The notes under the pieces are model-generated. The model saw nothing but the letters and a program-made list of their open reading frames with translations, was not told the origin of the DNA and did no database searches. DNA of 64,000 nucleotides from an uncultured Veillonellaceae bacterium. GTDB lineage: Bacteria > Bacillota > Negativicutes > Selenomonadales > Selenomonadaceae. The DNA lies in NCBI GenBank assembly GCA_900314825.1, contig OMWS01000038.1:1200-65199 (forward strand). Reading direction: 5' to 3'. Of the stretch, positions 2,171-33,004 are shown piece after piece; position 1 is the stretch's first letter, and every line of letters starts with the position of its first letter. Both the position numbers and the translations under genes were made by a program.

Positions 2171-3387
2171 TGGCCTCAAGAGAATTTATTGAAAAGATCC
2201 AGCGCTGCGGCGTACGAGGACTCTGCCACTCTCTGGTGATGTTGGAGGAATCTCCGGCAGGTTCCGGGAACTGGGTCGGCCATTGTCCGAATCCGGATCA
2301 TGAGGACAGTACGCCGTCGTTCTGGGTGTACGAGAACAGGAATACGACGGGCATCGAGAGCTGGTGTTGCCAAGGGTGTCATGTCGGAGGAAAAGACATC
2401 GACAAGAAGGATGGCGTCACCGACCCGAACAACCCGAACTTCGGCTCTGACAACATTGCATTCGTGCGGTGGCTCACGTTCCATCGCGACAAGAAGCTGC
2501 TGAGCTTTCCAGAAGCGCTGAAGAAGGTTGCAGAGTTCTATGGCATACCGATGGAGAGCACGAAATTCTCCGGCATTTATCAGAAAAACCGGAGCAACAT
2601 GATGAAATGGGAGATGCAGGTGACACCGTTTGTGCGCCTGTACCTCCACACGCGCGGCCTCGACGATGGAGACATCCAGAAGTGGCATCTCGGCTTCGAC
2701 GGCGAGCGCATCACTATGCCGATCTTCAACAGCATTGGAGATGTCATCGGCTTCTCCAACCGGGCCTTCACGAAGGAGGCGGAAGAATCCGGTTCGAAAT
2801 ATTTCAATACGCCGGAACGTTGGAACGGCCGAGAGACAGGGTTTCACAAGGGCTCCGTCTTCTACGGCATCCAGCACATTGACCGTCGTGACAACCGTCT
2901 TTTCATTTTCGAAGGACAATTCGACGCCATTCTCGCATCGAAGTACGGCATCCCGAACGCCGTGGCCATCATGACCTGCCACATGACGAAGGAGCAGGCG
3001 GAATACATCGCCAAGCAGAAGCTCCTTCCTGTCGTGTGCTTCGACCCGGACGAGGCCGGCCGCATGGGCGCGCTCAAGACGATGGAGCGCCTTCAGGAGG
3101 CTGGCGTGACGGACAGCCGCGTGCTGTTCCTGCCGGATGACAGGGATATGGCAGACCTCGCTCGCGACCTGAAGGGAGGGCTCTTCGATGCTGTCATGCC
3201 GCGCGTCATGCCGTTCTACCAGTATCTGTTGGGAGAGATGGCGGACGAGATGGATTCTGTCATCCTCCAGAAGCGGAACGAAATCATGCCGCGCGTGGAA
3301 GAAATCCTCTCCGGCATCCGCGACAAGGGCGAGCAGGGGCGAGCCAAAGACTACTTCGAGCGCCGGATGCGGATGTGGTCGGCATGA
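2167..3387 (+). CDS. DNA primase (CHC2 zinc finger + Toprim)
   Basis: GHCPNPDHEDSTPSFWVY is a CHC2-type zinc-finger motif. LFIFEGQFDAILASKYGIPNAVA...CFDPDEAG is Toprim-like. Confidence 0.8.
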   Translation: MMASREFIEKIQRCGVRGLCHSLVMLEESPAGSGNWVGHCPNPDHEDSTPSFWVYENRNTTGIESWCCQGCHVGGKDIDKKDGVTDPNNPNFGSDNIAFVRWLTFHRDKKLLSFPEALKKVAEFYGIPMESTKFSGIYQKNRSNMMKWEMQVTPFVRLYLHTRGLDDGDIQKWHLGFDGERITMPIFNSIGDVIGFSNRAFTKEAEESGSKYFNTPERWNGRETGFHKGSVFYGIQHIDRRDNRLFIFEGQFDAILASKYGIPNAVAIMTCHMTKEQAEYIAKQKLLPVVCFDPDEAGRMGALKTMERLQEAGVTDSRVLFLPDDRDMADLARDLKGGLFDAVMPRVMPFYQYLLGEMADEMDSVILQKRNEIMPRVEEILSGIRDKGEQGRAKDYFERRMRMWSA

Positions 3388-26439: not shown

Positions 26440-26664
26440 GGATATACGGGGGGTCAATTACCCACCACCTAGCGGCTTCGCCGCTTGAGGTGGGGGCTTG
26501 CAAGAGCCCGGAGTAATTGAGCAGAGACAACGACACAGCAGGAGCATCTGCACCGCCTTGGGTGATGACAAGCCTCTTGCGCCGGGGGTGGCTGTGCCGA
26601 GTCTATGGCACCACAACTCTGTGCCGTCAAGGCACGGAGGCTTATCGCAAAAGGAGTTTTCCTA
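26440..26664 (+). ncRNA. candidate IscB omegaRNA, second locus (boundaries approximate)
   Basis: Noncoding region 5' of iscB-2. It has a nested hairpin CCACCT-AGCGGC-ttc-GCCGCT-tg-AGGTGG (26465-26493), then GGGCTT-GCAA-GAGCCC (26494-26509) followed by GGAGTAA. This is collinear with 3445-3482. Confidence 0.55.
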
Positions 26665-28134
26665 ATGTATGTTGTCTATGTCCTGAACCAGAGCGGCAAG
26701 CCGCTCATGCCGACCAGAAGGTTCGGCCATGTCCGCAGGCTCCTGAAGTCCGGGATGGCGAAGGCCGTTTCCACAAAGCCTTTCATCATCCGCTTGCAGT
26801 ATATATCAAGCGACACAAAACAGCCGCTTCATGGGGCAACCGACCCTGGGCGCACGAACATCGGCGAAGCCGTCATCAATGACAAGGGCGAAGTTGTGTA
26901 TGCGGCGCATGTTGCCAGCAGGAACAAAGAAATCCCGAAACTCATGGAAAACCGTGCCAGTCACCGCAGTGCTTCCCGCAGGGGCGAACGCCTCCGCCGC
27001 AAGCGCCGGGCTGAAAAGAACGGCACGACAACCGAGTTTCCGAACGGAAGAAAGCTCCCCGGCTACGAGGATGGTGTCCTGCCGCTGAAGGACATCATCA
27101 ACACTGAGGCAAAGTTCAACAACCGCAGGCGGCCTGCTGGCTGGCTCACGCCGACAGCGCGGCAGTGCGTGCAGACGCATCTGAGCATGGTGCGCCGCAT
27201 CTGCAAGTTTCTGCCCGTCACGGACTGGACGCTGGAGTACAATCGTTTCGCCTTCATGCAGCTGGAGGATGGGACAGTCCGTGGCTGGGACTTCCAGAAT
27301 GGACGCCTGAAGGGCTACGCAAGCAAGGAAGACTATGTCTGTGCCTTGCAGGATGGCAGGTGCGCCCTGTGCGGCGAGCCCATCGAGGACTACCACCACA
27401 TTCTGCCGAAACACAAGGGTGGCTCCGATACGCCGGAGAACCTTGTCGGCCTCTGCGCCTCCTGCCATGCGGCTGTGCATGCAAGAAAGAAAAGTCTCTC
27501 GCAGATTGGCAGGGCAAAGAAATATGCTGGCACGTCCATCGTCAACACAGCCATGCCCTTCATCTGGGACGGGCTTGTCCGCATGTTCGGCGAAGACGCC
27601 CATATCTGTGAGGGCCAGGATACTGCGGATGCCCGCAAGGCCCTCAATGTCCCGAAGGAACACTTTACCGATGCAGTCTGCATCGCTGGCCTCGGCTCTG
27701 GAATCATGCCGCGCTACGATGATGCACAGCCGTTCGAGCTCCGCCAGTTCCGCAACCACGACAGAGCCCTCATCAAGGCGCAGACAGAACGGACGTATCG
27801 GCTGGATGGAAAAATCGTTGCTAGGAACCGCAAGCCCCGTTTTGAGCAGAAAGGGCCAGCTTTGTCTGATTGGTTCGACTCCGTTGCCAAGGAAAAGGGA
27901 GAGAAAGAGGCCATGCGCCTTCTCTCGAAGCTCGAAGTCTCAAAAAGTCAGCGGCGGTACAACAATCTGGAGCGGCATCTTCCAGGCTCCGTATTCCTGT
28001 ACAAGGGGAAGCGCTACGTAATGCAGGGCCAGCGGACGAACGGAAACTATCTCATCCCCGTCGGTCATGCAGACTGGAACCTTCCAAGGAAACAGTGCAC
28101 ATTTGTTGGCTTCCAGTCTCTGGCCTATATCTAG
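26665..28134 (+). CDS. iscB: IscB RNA-guided endonuclease (second, divergent copy)
   Basis: MYVVYVLNQSGKPLMPT (PLMP); RuvC-I GATDPGRTNIG; Arg-rich HRSASRRGERLRRKRR; RuvC-II WTLEYNRFA; HNH CALCGEPIEDYHHILPKHKGGSDTPENLVGLCASCHAAVH; RuvC-III EHFTDAVCIA. ATG 26665 follows AAAGGAG; the 26605 extension reads into the RNA region. Confidence 0.85.
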   Translation: MYVVYVLNQSGKPLMPTRRFGHVRRLLKSGMAKAVSTKPFIIRLQYISSDTKQPLHGATDPGRTNIGEAVINDKGEVVYAAHVASRNKEIPKLMENRASHRSASRRGERLRRKRRAEKNGTTTEFPNGRKLPGYEDGVLPLKDIINTEAKFNNRRRPAGWLTPTARQCVQTHLSMVRRICKFLPVTDWTLEYNRFAFMQLEDGTVRGWDFQNGRLKGYASKEDYVCALQDGRCALCGEPIEDYHHILPKHKGGSDTPENLVGLCASCHAAVHARKKSLSQIGRAKKYAGTSIVNTAMPFIWDGLVRMFGEDAHICEGQDTADARKALNVPKEHFTDAVCIAGLGSGIMPRYDDAQPFELRQFRNHDRALIKAQTERTYRLDGKIVARNRKPRFEQKGPALSDWFDSVAKEKGEKEAMRLLSKLEVSKSQRRYNNLERHLPGSVFLYKGKRYVMQGQRTNGNYLIPVGHADWNLPRKQCTFVGFQSLAYI

Positions 28135-28144
28135 AAAGGAGGTG

Positions 28145-28202
28145 CGGGCATTCCTCCCCGCCCTAGCGCCTGCGGCGCTTGAGGACGGGGTATCCTGCCC
28201 GC
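28145..28202 (+). repeat. extended stem-loop 3' of iscB-2 (candidate IS200/IS605-type end hairpin)
   Basis: GCGGGCA...CCCCGcCCT-AGCGCC-tgc-GGCGCT-tg-AGGaCGGGG...TGCCCGC. The inner architecture CCT-AGCGnC-nnC-GnCGCT-TG-AGG is the same as the hairpin at 26465-26493. Confidence 0.45.
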
Positions 28203-28217
28203 AATTCAGATGAAATC

Positions 28218-28610
28218 ATGATGATGCTATTGCTCAAAGCGACGTTCGACTCGGGAAGCATGGCATGCCAAATGGTGCCGGATGTCATCCGCGTCGAAGA
28301 CGGGACGGACGAGAGGGAGCAATATTGCAAGATATTGGATTGCAGCCATGTAGACATCAAGCAGGAGAAAATTGACGGAAAAGAGTTTTGCGTTCTTTCG
28401 GATGCGTACGGCCATGAAGCAGGGAAATTTCCATCGTACCTTTGCGAAAGTGAAAACTGCGTCTGCTTTGGGAATGTGCTCTTTGGCCGCATTGGGGACA
28501 AAGGGAAAGAAACCAGCATTCAGAAAGGAGATATTCCTGTCCTCACGAAGCACCTGTACAAGAACGTCCAAAAGCTGAACGTTATGCAGGCGGTGAGCGA
28601 GAGGCCGTAG
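28218..28610 (+). CDS. hypothetical protein
   Basis: 130-aa ORF starting at MMMLLLK. No RBS seen and the start is uncertain. Confidence 0.35.
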   Translation: MMMLLLKATFDSGSMACQMVPDVIRVEDGTDEREQYCKILDCSHVDIKQEKIDGKEFCVLSDAYGHEAGKFPSYLCESENCVCFGNVLFGRIGDKGKETSIQKGDIPVLTKHLYKNVQKLNVMQAVSERP

Positions 28611-28658
28611 TGGAGGTCTCTTTTTTCTTGCCTTATTGATACGTTCCAAGTAAAATAA

Positions 28659-29609
28659 ATGTGGAGGCGAGGCACGTTGGATCCTAGGCAAATGGCAGAA
28701 CAAATTGTGAGCGCTCTTGACGCCCGTCACTATGATCCAATGAACGATGTTCTGTTCAAGTTCATCTTCGGAAAAGTCGAACGCAAGGACATCACGATTG
28801 ATTTTTTGAATTCTGTGTTGGAACCCTCACTGGGGCACAAGGTCAAAGACCTTCGATTTATCTCGACGGAGATGATTCCGCAGAGCGAAGAGGAGAAGCT
28901 TTCGCGCTTGGATGTTGCCTGCGAGCTCGATACGGGGGAGTTCATCGATGTCGAAGTGCAGGTCATAAATTACAACAACATGCAACGCAGGACGTTGTAT
29001 TATTGGTCGGGGCTTTATCTTTCGCGCCTTGCGAAAGGGCAGAACTATCGGAGCTTGCGTCCTGTCATCACAATCAATATCCTCGCGTTCAGGCTCTTGC
29101 CGCAAGAAGAACCGCATGCTGAATACGGCGTGTACAATCCGAAGACGGGAGACCGGCTGACAGGTGATTTGGAAATTCATTTCTTGGAAATCCCAAAATT
29201 CATCAACAAGCCCGTAAGAGAAATGACGAAGATGGAACGTTGGATGGCGTATTTCTCCGGCAAGCTTGATGCAAAAGGAAAGGAGGAGCTTGCGATGAGC
29301 GAAGCAGCAATCAACAGCGCTTATGATGCGACGATGGCGTTCTTTCAGACACCAGAGGACCGCTTGAAATATCTCAATCGGCAGATGGCCATTATGGACT
29401 ACAATTCGGGGGTGGAAAGTGCCGAAGAACGCGGCGAGAAGCGTGGCGAGAGGCGTGGCGAGAGGCGTGGCGAGGAAAAGCTTGGGAAATTAATTGGAAG
29501 GTTGCGCGAAGCTGGGCGTGTAGAGGATGCTTTCGAAGCGGCTGCGAATCCTGAACGGCGTCGCGAGCTATATGAAGAATTTGGTTTTAATAATGGAGAA
29601 ACCGAGTAA
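28659..29609 (+). CDS. Rpn-family recombination-promoting nuclease / PD-(D/E)XK putative transposase
   Basis: DPMNDVLFKFIFG...RLDVACELDTGEFIDVEVQV...YYWSGLY...ITINILAF...LEIHFLEIPKF is the typical Rpn/YhgA-like core. The start is uncertain (alternative ATG 28692). Confidence 0.7.
   Translation: MWRRGTLDPRQMAEQIVSALDARHYDPMNDVLFKFIFGKVERKDITIDFLNSVLEPSLGHKVKDLRFISTEMIPQSEEEKLSRLDVACELDTGEFIDVEVQVINYNNMQRRTLYYWSGLYLSRLAKGQNYRSLRPVITINILAFRLLPQEEPHAEYGVYNPKTGDRLTGDLEIHFLEIPKFINKPVREMTKMERWMAYFSGKLDAKGKEELAMSEAAINSAYDATMAFFQTPEDRLKYLNRQMAIMDYNSGVESAEERGEKRGERRGERRGEEKLGKLIGRLREAGRVEDAFEAAANPERRRELYEEFGFNNGETE
29433..29474 (+). repeat. 12-nt in-frame tandem repeat inside rpn
   Basis: GGCGAGARGCGT x3 plus a partial unit, encoding GEKR-GERR-GERR-GE. 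Confidence 0.8.
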
Positions 29610-29628
29610 CTCCCTCCAACCATCAGAT

Positions 29629-29765
29629 GAGGAGCTTGCGATGAGCGAAGCAGCAATCAACAGCGCTTGCGATGCAACATTTTTATTTTTTTAGTTGCCA
29701 TAAGAGCGATTGAGATATCTTGACCATGGCCATCATGGATTGCGATTCAGTTTTGGTGAAGGAAG
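29629..29765 (+). pseudogene. degraded partial second copy of the rpn 3' region
   Basis: The 40 nt at 29629-29668 are identical to 29283-29322. Weaker similarity continues (CCATAAGAGCGATTGAGATATCT..ATGGCCATCATGGAT versus 29345-29400). No intact reading frame. Confidence 0.6.
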
Positions 29766-29812
29766 CGCGCATCGACTCTTTCCTTTTGTCGATGCGCGCT
29801 TGTCTTGCTTTA
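29764..29812 (+). terminator. strong stem-loop, probable terminator
   Basis: 13-bp stem AGCGCGCATCGAC-(11 nt)-GTCGATGCGCGCT followed by TGTCTTGCTTT. Confidence 0.55.
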
Positions 29813-29959
29813 TCAGAATCGCCGTAATACCCCTGGCTTCAGCCATGGGGATATAAGGCGATGCCTTGAGCTGGCTCGATGCCAGCGAAAGGCATAATTT
29901 CTCTCCTAGTTTTCATGTATGTTTGGTATAATATTCGTATCGAAAGAAAGTGATTTGAA

Positions 29960-31066
29960 ATGGCAAATACGCGAGGATACAAGTTTCGCATCTACCCAAA
30001 CAAGACGCAACAGATGCTGATAAACCGTACGCTCGGATGCTGCCGTTTTCTCTATAATCACTTCCTGGCACTGCGGCGTGACGAGTGGAAAGCAAACCGC
30101 CGCGGAATTTACTACAAGGAATCCGCTCGTCTGATGACGGAGATGAAACGTCGCGAGGAAACGAGCTGGCTTCGCGAAGTCGATTCCATGGCGCTGCAGG
30201 AATCTCTACGAAATCTCGATAATGCATTTTTGAGATTTTTCCAAAAGATTGCCCGCTATCCGCGCTTCAAGTCAAAGCATCGCCATGCGCAGAGCTATCG
30301 CACGCGGAACCAATCAAATGGTATTCGTCTTGTTGATGGAAAGCTCAAACTCCCGAAAATCGGGTTTGTCCGCATTCGCCTGTCCCGCACGTTCGATGGT
30401 AAGATCACCAATGCTACAGTATCCCGTACGGCATCCGGCAAGTATTTCGTCTCGCTGTGCGTCGAGGAAAATGTCTCGTTCGCGCCGTGCGGCACGGGCA
30501 AGGTCGGCATTGATGTCGGTCTCAAGGAGTTCTACTCCGACAGCAATGGCAATACCGTAGAAAACCCGCGCCTGATTCGCTGCTTCCAGAGGAAGCTACG
30601 TCGCGAGCAGCGTCGTCTTTCGCGCAAGATGCCGCATTCTCGCAACCGCGACAAGCAACGCATCCGTATTGCCAAAGTTCATGAGCGCATCAAGAACATC
30701 CGTCGGGATTTCCAGCAGAAGCTCACGACACAGCTGATCAACGAAAACCAAGTGATCGCTGTAGAGCACCTGAAAATCTCTGGCATGCTCAAGAATCGCA
30801 AGCTCGCGAAGGCGATTTCCGATGCCAGTTGGTACGAGTTCTTCCGGGAGCTTGGATACAAGGCAGTTTGGCGGGGCGCGCAAGTTTTGAAGGTAGATAC
30901 GTTCTATCCGTCCAGTCAGACTTGCGGAAACTGCGGCTACAAGAACCCGCTTGTGAAGAACCTGTCGGTTCGCGAATGGACGTGTCCGGAATGCGGCACG
31001 CACCACAATCGAGACATCAACGCCGCGAAGAACATCCTGGCGAAAGCACTTGAGCAAGTAGCCTGA
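29960..31066 (+). CDS. tnpB: TnpB RNA-guided endonuclease (IS605 OrfB family)
   Basis: [17 protein letters not shown]; RuvC D in GIDVGLKEF; E in [12 protein letters not shown]; zinc finger CGNCGYKN...[18 protein letters not shown]. Confidence 0.9.
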
Positions 31067-31201
31067 CCAATACACAGAACATACCGTGGGACACACGGAA
31101 ATCTACGCTCGGGAAGATTGCATAAGACGAGAGAAGCCAAGGCTTAAGCGCAGCGGTCGTCGAACCGAGAATCCCCCGGCTTTAGCCGTGGGGAGTGTCA
31201 A
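31000..31201 (+). ncRNA. candidate TnpB omegaRNA/reRNA scaffold (5' boundary unknown)
   Basis: In characterised TnpB systems the guide RNA scaffold overlaps the tnpB 3' end and runs to the RE boundary. Here that region contains the RE hairpin and ends at ...GAGTGTCAA. The guide would be the next 16-20 nt, GTCCATCGAAAAAGTGAAAG. Confidence 0.45.
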
Positions 31202-31214
31202 GTCCATCGAAAAA

Positions 31215-31667
31215 GTGAAAGCATATTTTGAAAGTATCGGCGAAGCGGAACGCATCCTGACGTTCGATGAATCAACGGCGACGGTACAGCTTGCAGCCGA
31301 AGCGCTCGGCGTGACGCCGGGGCATATCGCGAAAACACTATCGTTCCTCGTGGACGGGAAGCCGCTGCTCATTGTGCTCGCCGGTGACGCCCGCATGGAC
31401 AACCACAAATTCAAAGAAGCGTTCCAGAAGAAGGGACGCATGATTCCTGCATCTGATGTGGAAGCGCTCGTCGGCCATGCGCCTGGTGGCGTTTGTCCGT
31501 TCTGTGTGAAGGAGGACGTTCCGGTGTATCTCGACATCTCTCTTCAGGAATACGAGACAGTGTATCCAGCTGCCGGCGATGACCATAGCGCCGTTCGCAT
31601 GACGCCGAAAGAGCTTTGTGTGTTTGCCCATGCCGTAGGATGGGTAGATATCCACAAGGAAGTATAA
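31215..31667 (+). CDS. YbaK/EbsC-family (aminoacyl-tRNA editing domain) protein; native start apparently disrupted by the IS
   Basis: IEKVKAYFESIGEAERILTFDESTATVQLAAEALGV...GGVCPF... is typical of the YbaK/ProX family. The ORF-track start 31086 lies inside the IS right end. GTG 31215 is the first start candidate outside the IS. Confidence 0.6.
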   Translation: MKAYFESIGEAERILTFDESTATVQLAAEALGVTPGHIAKTLSFLVDGKPLLIVLAGDARMDNHKFKEAFQKKGRMIPASDVEALVGHAPGGVCPFCVKEDVPVYLDISLQEYETVYPAAGDDHSAVRMTPKELCVFAHAVGWVDIHKEV

Positions 31668-31692
31668 AGGCACTTGTTAGAGTAGAATGCTT

Positions 31693-32202
31693 TCATTGTG
31701 AGATGGTCTTCTGTTTTTTTGATAACGACAATATCTTCAACAAAAGCTTATTGGGGCTTTTAAAAAAAATATTTTCCAAATCGCTCTCTGCACTGTTGGG
31801 TATACGATTGATTACGTTTCCGTCTCCGTGAGCCAATCCGTTTCGGATGGTTACGAGATTTAGCCCATTGATTGTGATATTGGTAAAGTTTTTGCACAAG
31901 TCGATAAATTGATCAACGTCATCACCAAGGAATTCGGTGAATTTTTCTATTGACATGCATTTTCTCATACCATCGCTTGAATTTATGAAAATAGCAAAAA
32001 ACTTTATGTTGCCAAGAGAAAAATAATGCTTTCCTATCAGTATATCGTTTATTAATTTGTATCGTTGCGACCGGCATTCCATAGATGAAAGATCATCTGA
32101 AAATTTATCTTGAAATGGCACAATGAACTGTGCAGAGAATTCTTGCTCCAGTGTTGTGAACAGATGCATCAGTATGTATTTTGAAATATTGTTTTTTACC
32201 AT
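31693..32202 (-). CDS. hypothetical protein with HEPN-like Rx4H motif, in an AT-rich islet
   Basis: 169 aa in a markedly AT-rich stretch (by eye, GC not computed). TIRNGLAHGDGN fits the Rx4-6H motif of HEPN/Abi-type RNases. Nothing else was recognised. Confidence 0.35.
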   Translation of the reverse strand: MVKNNISKYILMHLFTTLEQEFSAQFIVPFQDKFSDDLSSMECRSQRYKLINDILIGKHYFSLGNIKFFAIFINSSDGMRKCMSIEKFTEFLGDDVDQFIDLCKNFTNITINGLNLVTIRNGLAHGDGNVINRIPNSAESDLENIFFKSPNKLLLKILSLSKKQKTISQ

Positions 32203-32358
32203 CTGGAGTAATTTTTGTGAAGTAAGAAGGGAAATCCACTATCTACGGCGAATGGATAAATGCGAGTAATTAGACGCAAATCAAGGATTCTGGCGGGTGC
32301 AGAAAACCCATGGTTTTTCTGCAGTCGGAAGATTTTTCTTACGAGCGGAGGAAATCGT

Positions 32359-32985
32359 GTGAACACATATATAAAACGATGGCTTTGTCTGGCTGCCGCA
32401 GGCGCGGCCATCTATCTTGCGCCGATGACGGCAGCTTCCGCAAGCGGCGGGGCTATAGACGAGACAAATCTCACCTTGGAAGAAGCTATCGGCATGGCGC
32501 TTCAGTCGAACCGTGCCATTGAGCAAGCGGCGGACGACCGGGAGGCGGCGAAGTGGGAACTTTCCGAGGCGCGCCGGAATTTCGGCCCCAAGTTCACTTG
32601 GCAGATGTCGGGGATGCGTATTGGCGGGCGTTCCTACGACAGCGCCCGCCAAAACCATGATCTCTACGGTACGCCGCCCTACGACAGCGAATTTACCAAC
32701 CAATTCCAGGCAAGCCTGCCCGTATATAGCGGCGGGAAACTGGAGAACCGGAAAAAGGCCGCCGAAGCCGGGCTTTACGGCGCAGACCTCACGGCGGAGA
32801 ACACGGCAGAGACCGTGGCCTATCGGACAAAAGCGGCTTATTACCGCGTTATCCAGTGCCAAAATCTCATTACCGCACATGAGGAAGCCGTTCGCAATTT
32901 GGAGGAACACTTAAATGTCGTGCGTACCCAATACGAAATCGGCACGGCGGCGCAGTCGGCGATACGGAAGATTTTTGGACAGTGA
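32359..32985 (+). pseudogene. TolC-family outer-membrane factor, N-terminal half only
   Basis: GTG after GGAGGAAA. Signal peptide KRWLCLAAAGAAIYLAPMTAASA, then TolC-like LTLEEAIGMALQSNRAIEQAADDREAAKWELSEARR...TAENTAETVAYRTKAAYYRVIQ...TQYEIGTA. It ends after about 208 aa; full-length proteins are about 420-450 aa. Confidence 0.55.
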
Positions 32986-33004
32986 TTTTTGAGGAGGCTT
33001 CAAT

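Follow-up and report, generated by a model that had tools for sequence, protein, structure and literature searches.

How has a gene of the YbaK/EbsC family come to lie directly behind a transposon, with its whole reading frame kept except for the first two bases of its start codon? The locus lies in a 64,000-nt stretch of DNA (the window) from an uncultured Veillonellaceae bacterium placed by GTDB in the Selenomonadaceae (assembly GCA_900314825.1, contig OMWS01000038.1, positions 1,200–65,199 of the forward strand). An earlier note, made from the letters alone, had proposed that a TnpB-only element of the IS605 family sits inside the ATG of a ybaK-like gene. Our comparison with related genomes indicates that positions 29814–31201 (plus strand) are very probably a TnpB-only element of the IS200/IS605 family, with IS1341-type organization and IS608-like ends, inserted 3′ of a TTAT that overlaps a ybaK-family start codon. 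What that note predicted for the ends, target, split codon, and guide was borne out and is supported by the sequence comparisons, while TnpB activity, the target-adjacent motif (TAM), and expression of an omega-RNA stay predictions. The element belongs to a well-known transposon family, of which it is an ordinary new member.

Ends of the element and its target rule

Both ends contain subterminal imperfect palindromes in place of terminal inverted repeats, and these palindromes show compensatory changes among relatives. The left hairpin reads CCCCTGGC-TTCA-GCCATGGGG and its foot is separated from the TTAT by 16 nt. The right hairpin, CCCCCGGC-TTTA-GCCGTGGGG at 31173–31193, is directly preceded by GAAT (31169–31172), and the cleavage motif TCAA follows at 31198–31201. 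Each hairpin is built on an 8-bp stem whose 3′ arm contains a bulged T, and the two differ by one compensatory change (T-A versus C-G); reading positions 29500–31900 verified every coordinate given in the note. The left flank reads GTCTTGCTTTAT and the right flank GTCCATCGAAAA, with no duplication between them. A DNA search of its own genome found no further copies; since it is present only once, its ends were determined from relatives instead.

For the right end, 60 related genomes were searched at the DNA level. The extracted matches comprise about 15 right ends, which come from at least eight genomes; six of these belong to a single genome, G029. All of these have the arrangement GAAT–hairpin–(3–9 nt)–TCAA, and the DNA after TCAA is unrelated each time. 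As the flanks diverge immediately past TCAA in the relatives, the right end is placed at 31201. An alignment of 10 elements showed that GAAT and TCAA are invariant, and that the hairpin between them varies by compensatory changes. The pairing of a GAAT 5′ of the hairpin with a TCAA terminus, which had been read from the window alone, is therefore confirmed both there and in the related right ends.

Left ends were collected by a pattern search for the left-end hairpin and by a protein-based scan of species genomes, which together gave 33 distinct examples. They follow a common register: a 12-nt leader beginning with C, a 4-nt guide, a 21-nt hairpin, and then ATATA. In ten copies from G029, the DNA is unrelated as far as the flanking TTAC, and the element runs from there. 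Together, this register and the G029 copies fix the start of the element to the base at 29814. The relatives, whose right ends stop at TCAA and whose left ends begin directly after TTAC or TTAT, thus agree with the predicted ends at 29814 and 31201. Judged from these alignments, the recurrence of the end features in about 15 right ends and 33 left ends of other genomes is far above chance.

The target rule can be read from the same collection. In IS608, the four bases 5′ of the hairpin foot read the left cleavage and target tetranucleotide; excision is scarless, and an altered guide leads to an altered target (PMC3201880). Among the relatives, the guide AAAG stands beside the flank TTAC in 10 elements, and the guide AAAA beside TTAT in 12, with four more having a leader longer by one base. 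In the window element, the guide AATA stands beside TTAT. A TTAT target, first proposed from AATA by analogy with IS608, is supported by this covariation of guide and flank and by the published IS608 rule (PMC3201880). The pairing of AAAG with TTAC and of AAAA or AATA with TTAT carries that rule over to a clade of elements from gut Firmicutes. The coordinates of all features are collected in Table 1.

Table 1. Features of the element and of its surroundings, in window coordinates.
Feature	Position	Strand	Description
Whole element	29814–31201	+	1,388 bp; terminal inverted repeats, 0; target-site duplication, 0; one copy in the genome
Left end	29814–29959	+	12-nt leader CAGAATCGCCGT; AATA guide at 29826–29829; imperfect palindrome at 29830–29850
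TTAT target/left cleavage tetranucleotide	29810–29813	+	Predicted TnpB TAM (or TTTAT, counted as five bases); ends with the AT of the split ATG
tnpB	29960–31066	+	368 amino acids, intact frame; Pfam PF01385 (OrfB_IS605), PF07282 (Cas12f1-like TNB), and PF12323 (HTH_OrfB_IS605)
Right end and predicted omega-RNA scaffold	31062–31201	+	5′ limit uncertain; may extend into the 3′ end of tnpB
Predicted omega-RNA guide/donor-joint target	31202–31217	+	GTCCATCGAAAAAGTG; G of the ybaK start and codons 2–6; predicted from the placement of the right end (31201) and from known TnpB biology (10.1101/2023.03.14.532601)
YbaK/EbsC-family (tRNA_edit) coding sequence	31202–31667	+	AT of the ATG missing, frame otherwise intact; Pfam PF04073, E = 4e-28
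Read-through open reading frame	31086–31667	+	193 amino acids; begins at GTG 31086, crosses the right end, and continues in the frame of ybaK; another in-frame GTG (31187) within the right-end hairpin
Left flank	29765–29813	+	12-bp GC-rich hairpin (29765–29776/29788–29799) with T-rich tail TTGTCTTGCTTTAT; terminator-like; no Shine–Dalgarno sequence

G029, the source of the ten aligned left ends, is a small genome of about 1.4 Mb from the same family with at least ten copies of a related element (loci L092, L096–L104, L009, L018, L024, and L027–L029). All of these copies have TTAC at their flank, and many sit at the ends of contigs; the pattern resembles a recent burst and offers a good natural data set for the definition of ends. 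In the left end of the window element, an extended -10-like TGGTATAAT was read by eye at 29924–29932, and a scan of 29550–31750 for the sigma-70 consensus found no full -35/-10 promoter.

The split start codon of ybaK

Joining ...GCTTTAT on the left to position 31202 on the right restores ATG TCC ATC GAA AAA GTG AAA, in frame with the tRNA_edit reading frame that ends at 31667; the sequence and the list of open reading frames both confirm the in-frame MSIEKVK that had been foreseen for this junction. Nine genomes from the same family have a homologue whose first codon is ATG, or in one of them GTG, and the G of this codon aligns to 31202. Five of the nine read ATG TCC/TCT/TCG AT..., i.e. MSI(E/K/D)KV. 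A degenerate pattern scan of metagenomes returned 13 contigs, all with an ATG directly before TCN ATH GAR AAR GTN, and an uninterrupted allele in the same 90% protein cluster as the window gene (P0129) begins MSIEKVKAYFES. The uninterrupted genes thus start at the predicted junction in the nine genomes, in a paralogue within the same genome, and in the 13 metagenome contigs, several of them with MSIEKVK; their start position matches the junction exactly, which places the split of the codon at AT^G. The gene scores 62.9 bits with TIGR00011, the equivalog model for Cys-tRNA(Pro) deacylase, against a cut-off of 153; 'YbaK/EbsC-family protein', the name given to its homologues in the sources, is therefore the safe one.

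The intact paralogue (MAIEKVKAYF...) lies at 3065–3537 of contig C94 (1097–1561 of locus L002, minus strand), with AAGGAG 7 nt upstream of its ATG. It has 88% protein identity to the window copy, with a synonymous divergence (dS) of 0.95 and a ratio of nonsynonymous to synonymous divergence (dN/dS) of 0.07. The high dS shows that the two copies are old relatives and not a fresh duplication, and the C94 copy is the nearer of the two to the orthologues of other species in the genus. The interrupted gene is a second, anciently diverged copy. For the host, this is a routine interruption with a functional paralogue elsewhere. Neither paralogue has common neighbours with relatives within 1.5 kb.

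Several points weigh against an insertion that split this start codon. The closest relatives of the element have only about 70% DNA identity and the element is single-copy here, so its ends rest on comparison at the level of the family; as regards the TAM, TTAC as well as TTAT occurs among the closest multi-copy relatives. Searches for an empty site were negative: an exact 29-mer had no match in the JGI metagenomes, and none of the 13 homologues that the degenerate scan returned from them has the flanks seen in the window. For this reason, the insertion is inferred from homologues and not from an allele of the same locus. Nor did any contig skip 29814–31201 in four runs, although only contigs were searched and such an absence proves nothing. 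The RNA evidence consists of metatranscriptome contigs, which may stem from carried-over DNA. Finally, a native left flank would leave the lack of a Shine–Dalgarno sequence without explanation.

Origin of the left flank and fate of ybaK

The earlier note had cautioned that no Shine–Dalgarno sequence precedes the restored ATG and that a terminator hairpin lies just upstream, and both features are real. At the reconstructed site, ...GCGCGC-TTGTCTTGCTTT-ATG-TCC, the T-rich tail of the hairpin runs into the ATG with no ribosome-binding site; the hairpin has a loop of 11 nt and was therefore missed by a simple terminator scan. About 200 nt on the left (a remnant at about 29620–29790) are a decayed partial duplicate of the 3′ region of the neighbouring rpn gene (PDDEXK_2), matching the interior of that gene and further rpn copies. 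No synteny within the genus was found on either side of the locus, apart from this multi-copy gene on the left. Every uninterrupted homologue (more than 20) carries a purine-rich Shine–Dalgarno sequence 6–10 nt before its ATG. The tail of the right end, GGAGTGT, resembles seven bases of the Shine–Dalgarno region of the paralogue; we attribute this to chance, since GGAGTGTCAA is kept by the right ends of elements at unrelated loci.

The simplest history, with a single event, would make the left flank the true pre-insertion sequence: this copy of ybaK would already have stood behind the rpn terminator with no ribosome-binding site, and TTTAT|GTCC would be the faithful empty site. Intact ends without a target-site duplication are what a clean insertion leaves, the same left junction occurs in bovine and pig gut runs, and the region is a patchwork with genes out of their native surroundings, all of which fit this history. 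It implies, however, a duplicate that was silent or oddly expressed before the insertion, whereas all of the 20 or more uninterrupted homologues have a Shine–Dalgarno sequence and the strong historical purifying selection on the gene (the dN/dS given above) is ill-suited to a copy long silent. The regenerated ATG carries no weight here, because the target motif itself ends in AT: any insertion of this element has TTAT on its left, and AT plus G gives ATG regardless, so that it offers no independent support for an intact empty site. We therefore consider a native left flank rather unlikely. The present left flank is probably not the original leader of the gene, and it is about an even chance that it was exchanged after the element had entered at a native ...TTAT|G, for example by recombination between two copies with loss of the intervening DNA. 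A pig-gut run (X11) has the same left junction with ybaK not covered, and one of its contigs continues past 31201 with GGTCGAGTGC, a 30-mer of which is absent from this genome. These contigs would fit flanks that are separable, yet the last 30–40 bases of the right end are common to other elements there, and we do not count this weak indication as evidence.

In another reading, ybaK would still be expressed, by read-through from tnpB and translation from an in-frame GTG at 31187 or 31086 that would give an N-terminal extension of 4 or 38 residues, so that the insertion would be tolerated. In agreement with this, ybaK is encoded on the strand of tnpB, no stop codon interrupts the frame between 31086 and ybaK, and ybaK itself has an intact frame. 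Gene callers use both GTG codons: the 193-residue call (P0121) is recorded in 22 contigs, and a 159-residue call from GTG 31187 (P0122–P0124, MGSVKSIEKVK...) in about 20 more, including allelic variants, so that the junction is seen in dozens of contigs; the stretch is present in runs of at least 10 studies, mostly of bovine and pig gut. Contigs from a bovine-gut metatranscriptome run (X16) cover 29745–29896 with the left junction, the 3′ end of tnpB, and 31090–31390 with the junction of the right end and ybaK; in the last of these, the four differences listed for ybaK each change a third codon position and are synonymous. The X16 contigs fit read-through transcription and leave room for it, but they are indistinguishable from DNA carry-over. 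Moreover, no Shine–Dalgarno sequence is visible before either GTG, the one at 31187 is part of the 3′ arm of a stable, GC-rich hairpin, 38 open codons are expected by chance about 16% of the time, and the variants could derive from recombination with the intact paralogue, since P0125 and P0127 look chimeric. Continued expression of ybaK thus appears improbable to us. We regard as very doubtful the further idea that the insertion is no knockout at all, and that the element is kept across rumen and pig-gut strains because its right end supplies ybaK, which is intact and has evolved under purifying selection, with transcription and a replacement GTG start; were it true, the end of the transposon would double as an omega-RNA scaffold and as the 5′ part of the coding region of a host gene, and omega-RNA processing would compete with ybaK expression. 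It is extremely unlikely that the element is an IStron, in which a group I intron is fused to an IS605-type element, or a domesticated, TldR-like regulator of ybaK and not a simple insertion sequence. Such elements do occur in or beside genes without destroying them, and the predicted guide matches the 5′ end of a gene. This reading is contradicted by the data: Rfam found no family, and so no group I intron, in 28000–33000 (E ≤ 1), the left end leaves just 146 nt before tnpB, and, unlike a nuclease-dead TldR, the protein is full length against ISDra2 TnpB with its RuvC D/E/D residues and zinc ribbon intact, between two intact transposon ends.

Three proteins join ybaK sequences in other combinations. 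P0125 and P0127 (contigs of 1,013 and 778 nt) are reciprocal chimeras of the window-type and C94-type ybaK, from recombination between the paralogues or from switching during assembly. P0128, a reading frame of 171 residues (MTTLLKNPPALAVGSVKSIEKVK...), has the same ybaK junction joined to a right end of the G022/G008 subtype (compare L007:1501–1760, minus strand), which has only its last 34 nt in common with the right end in the window. It could be a second type of element at the same site, an internal swap, or a chimera of assembly at k = 31. All three may be assembly artefacts.

TnpB, the predicted guide, and mobility

The product of tnpB scores 506 bits with the NCBIfam model IS200_TnpB (NF038281), which has a cut-off of 425. 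The closest solved structure is that of ISDra2 TnpB (PDB 8bf8/8exa/8h1j; E = 1.4e-101 over residues 4–364), and in this alignment the RuvC acidic residues D/E/D (GIDVG, VEHLK, and NRDINAA) and the CxxC...CxxC zinc ribbon are kept. The nearest TnpB proteins, from Selenomonas ruminantium, Mitsuokella, and Anaerovibrio, have 65–67% identity.

The last 140 nt of six related elements have a common fold of 29 pairs, 10 of them with compensatory changes, that ends in the right-end hairpin; folded singly, the right end of the window element gives z = -2.4. The same Rfam search of 28000–33000 found no family for the right-end RNA. By analogy with ISDra2 and the Geobacillus elements (10.1101/2023.03.14.532601), the right end is predicted to encode the scaffold of an omega-RNA, and the adjoining flank its guide. 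The predicted position of the guide, directly 3′ of the element as had been proposed, follows from where the right end was placed (31201). This 16-mer has no second exact site in the genome; the ybaK paralogue differs from it by three mismatches and has CCAT in the position of the TAM. Since a TTTAT TAM has been shown experimentally for GstTnpB2 (10.1101/2023.03.14.532601), TTAT or TTTAT is a plausible TAM for the window TnpB. As a natural protein of 368 residues with a predicted TTAT TAM and a defined guide, it would be a candidate for a compact editor.

The element contains no tnpA, and the only gene of the genome with PF01797 (Y1) lies on contig C4, in an element with unrelated ends. Without a cognate TnpA in the genome, the element is non-autonomous and cannot move by itself, so it is probably immobile here. 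The missing tnpA is normal for the IS1341 type and does not exclude it from the family. On arrival, single-stranded DNA would have been inserted 3′ of the TTAT overlapping the ybaK start, leaving AT to the left of the element and G to its right. A Y1 transposase acting in trans would recognize both subterminal hairpins and find the cleavage sites through the tetranucleotides 5′ of them: the left-end AATA would lead it to TTAT, and the right-end GAAT to TCAA. The omega-RNA would be made from the right end, with read-through into the flank providing the guide GTCCATCGAAAAAGTG. Upon excision, TnpB may then cut the scarless donor joint TTAT|GTCCATCG..., favouring retention of the element. TnpB is known to target donor joints, and most tnpB elements are non-autonomous (10.1101/2023.03.14.532601).

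The element resembles IS608 of Helicobacter pylori in having subterminal imperfect palindromes whose CCCC...GGGG stem contains an extrahelical T, insertion 3′ of a tetranucleotide read by a 4-nt guide 5′ of the left hairpin, and a right end that finishes with TCAA, with neither inverted repeats nor target duplication. The right guide of IS608 is also GAAT. In contrast to IS608, the window element has no tnpA, pairs AATA with TTAT instead of AAAG with TTAC, and has left and right spacings of 16 and 8 nt, compared to 19 and 10. The AAAG/TTAC pair of IS608 itself recurs exactly in elements related to the window element (PMC3201880). With ISDra2 TnpB of Deinococcus radiodurans, the protein has in common the D/E/D residues and the zinc ribbon, and the predicted RNA scaffold at the 3′ end of the element with a guide from the flank would match as well; ISDra2, however, carries tnpA, uses a TTGAT TAM, and encodes a protein about 40 residues longer at the C-terminus. 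A similar organization is that of the tnpB elements (ISGst) of Geobacillus stearothermophilus and the IS1341 group, which are tnpB-only and depend on TnpA in trans (Meers et al., 10.1101/2023.03.14.532601). A TTTAT-type TAM beside the left end and a donor joint that is the natural target of TnpB, as in ISGst, are predicted for the window element, whose host differs in being a rumen Selenomonas-like member of the Selenomonadaceae with no cognate TnpA seen in its genome. The element settles no open question, but it is a clean worked example of how the ends, target motif, donor joint, and guide of a TnpB element can be read from a sequence and then verified by comparison.

The same genome holds other elements and nuclease genes of this kind. 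Contig C4 carries a complete tnpA–tnpB element of the IS605 type at 1–2100 (L064), with quite different ends. A third TnpB, with 30% identity and no tnpA, lies at 1767–2990 of contig C109 (L063); its right end is IS608-like, GAAT-CCCACGGCTTCAGCCGTGGG-...TCAA, with a perfect hairpin. In the window, a 509-residue IscB (RRXRR and HNH; NCBIfam guided_IscB, 220 bits) is encoded at 26605–28134 (plus strand), 1.7 kb upstream of the TnpB element, and fragments similar to its locus occur on contigs C137, C95, and C4. The rpn gene (Rpn-family PD-(D/E)XK) lies between the two at 28659–29609 (plus strand) with the decayed duplicate of its 3′ region behind it; elsewhere in the genome, at least six further copies of rpn with 72–83% DNA identity are scattered (contigs C81, C115, C68, C54, C39, and C73). 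IscB, Rpn, and TnpB thus stand side by side as three kinds of mobile or nuclease gene.

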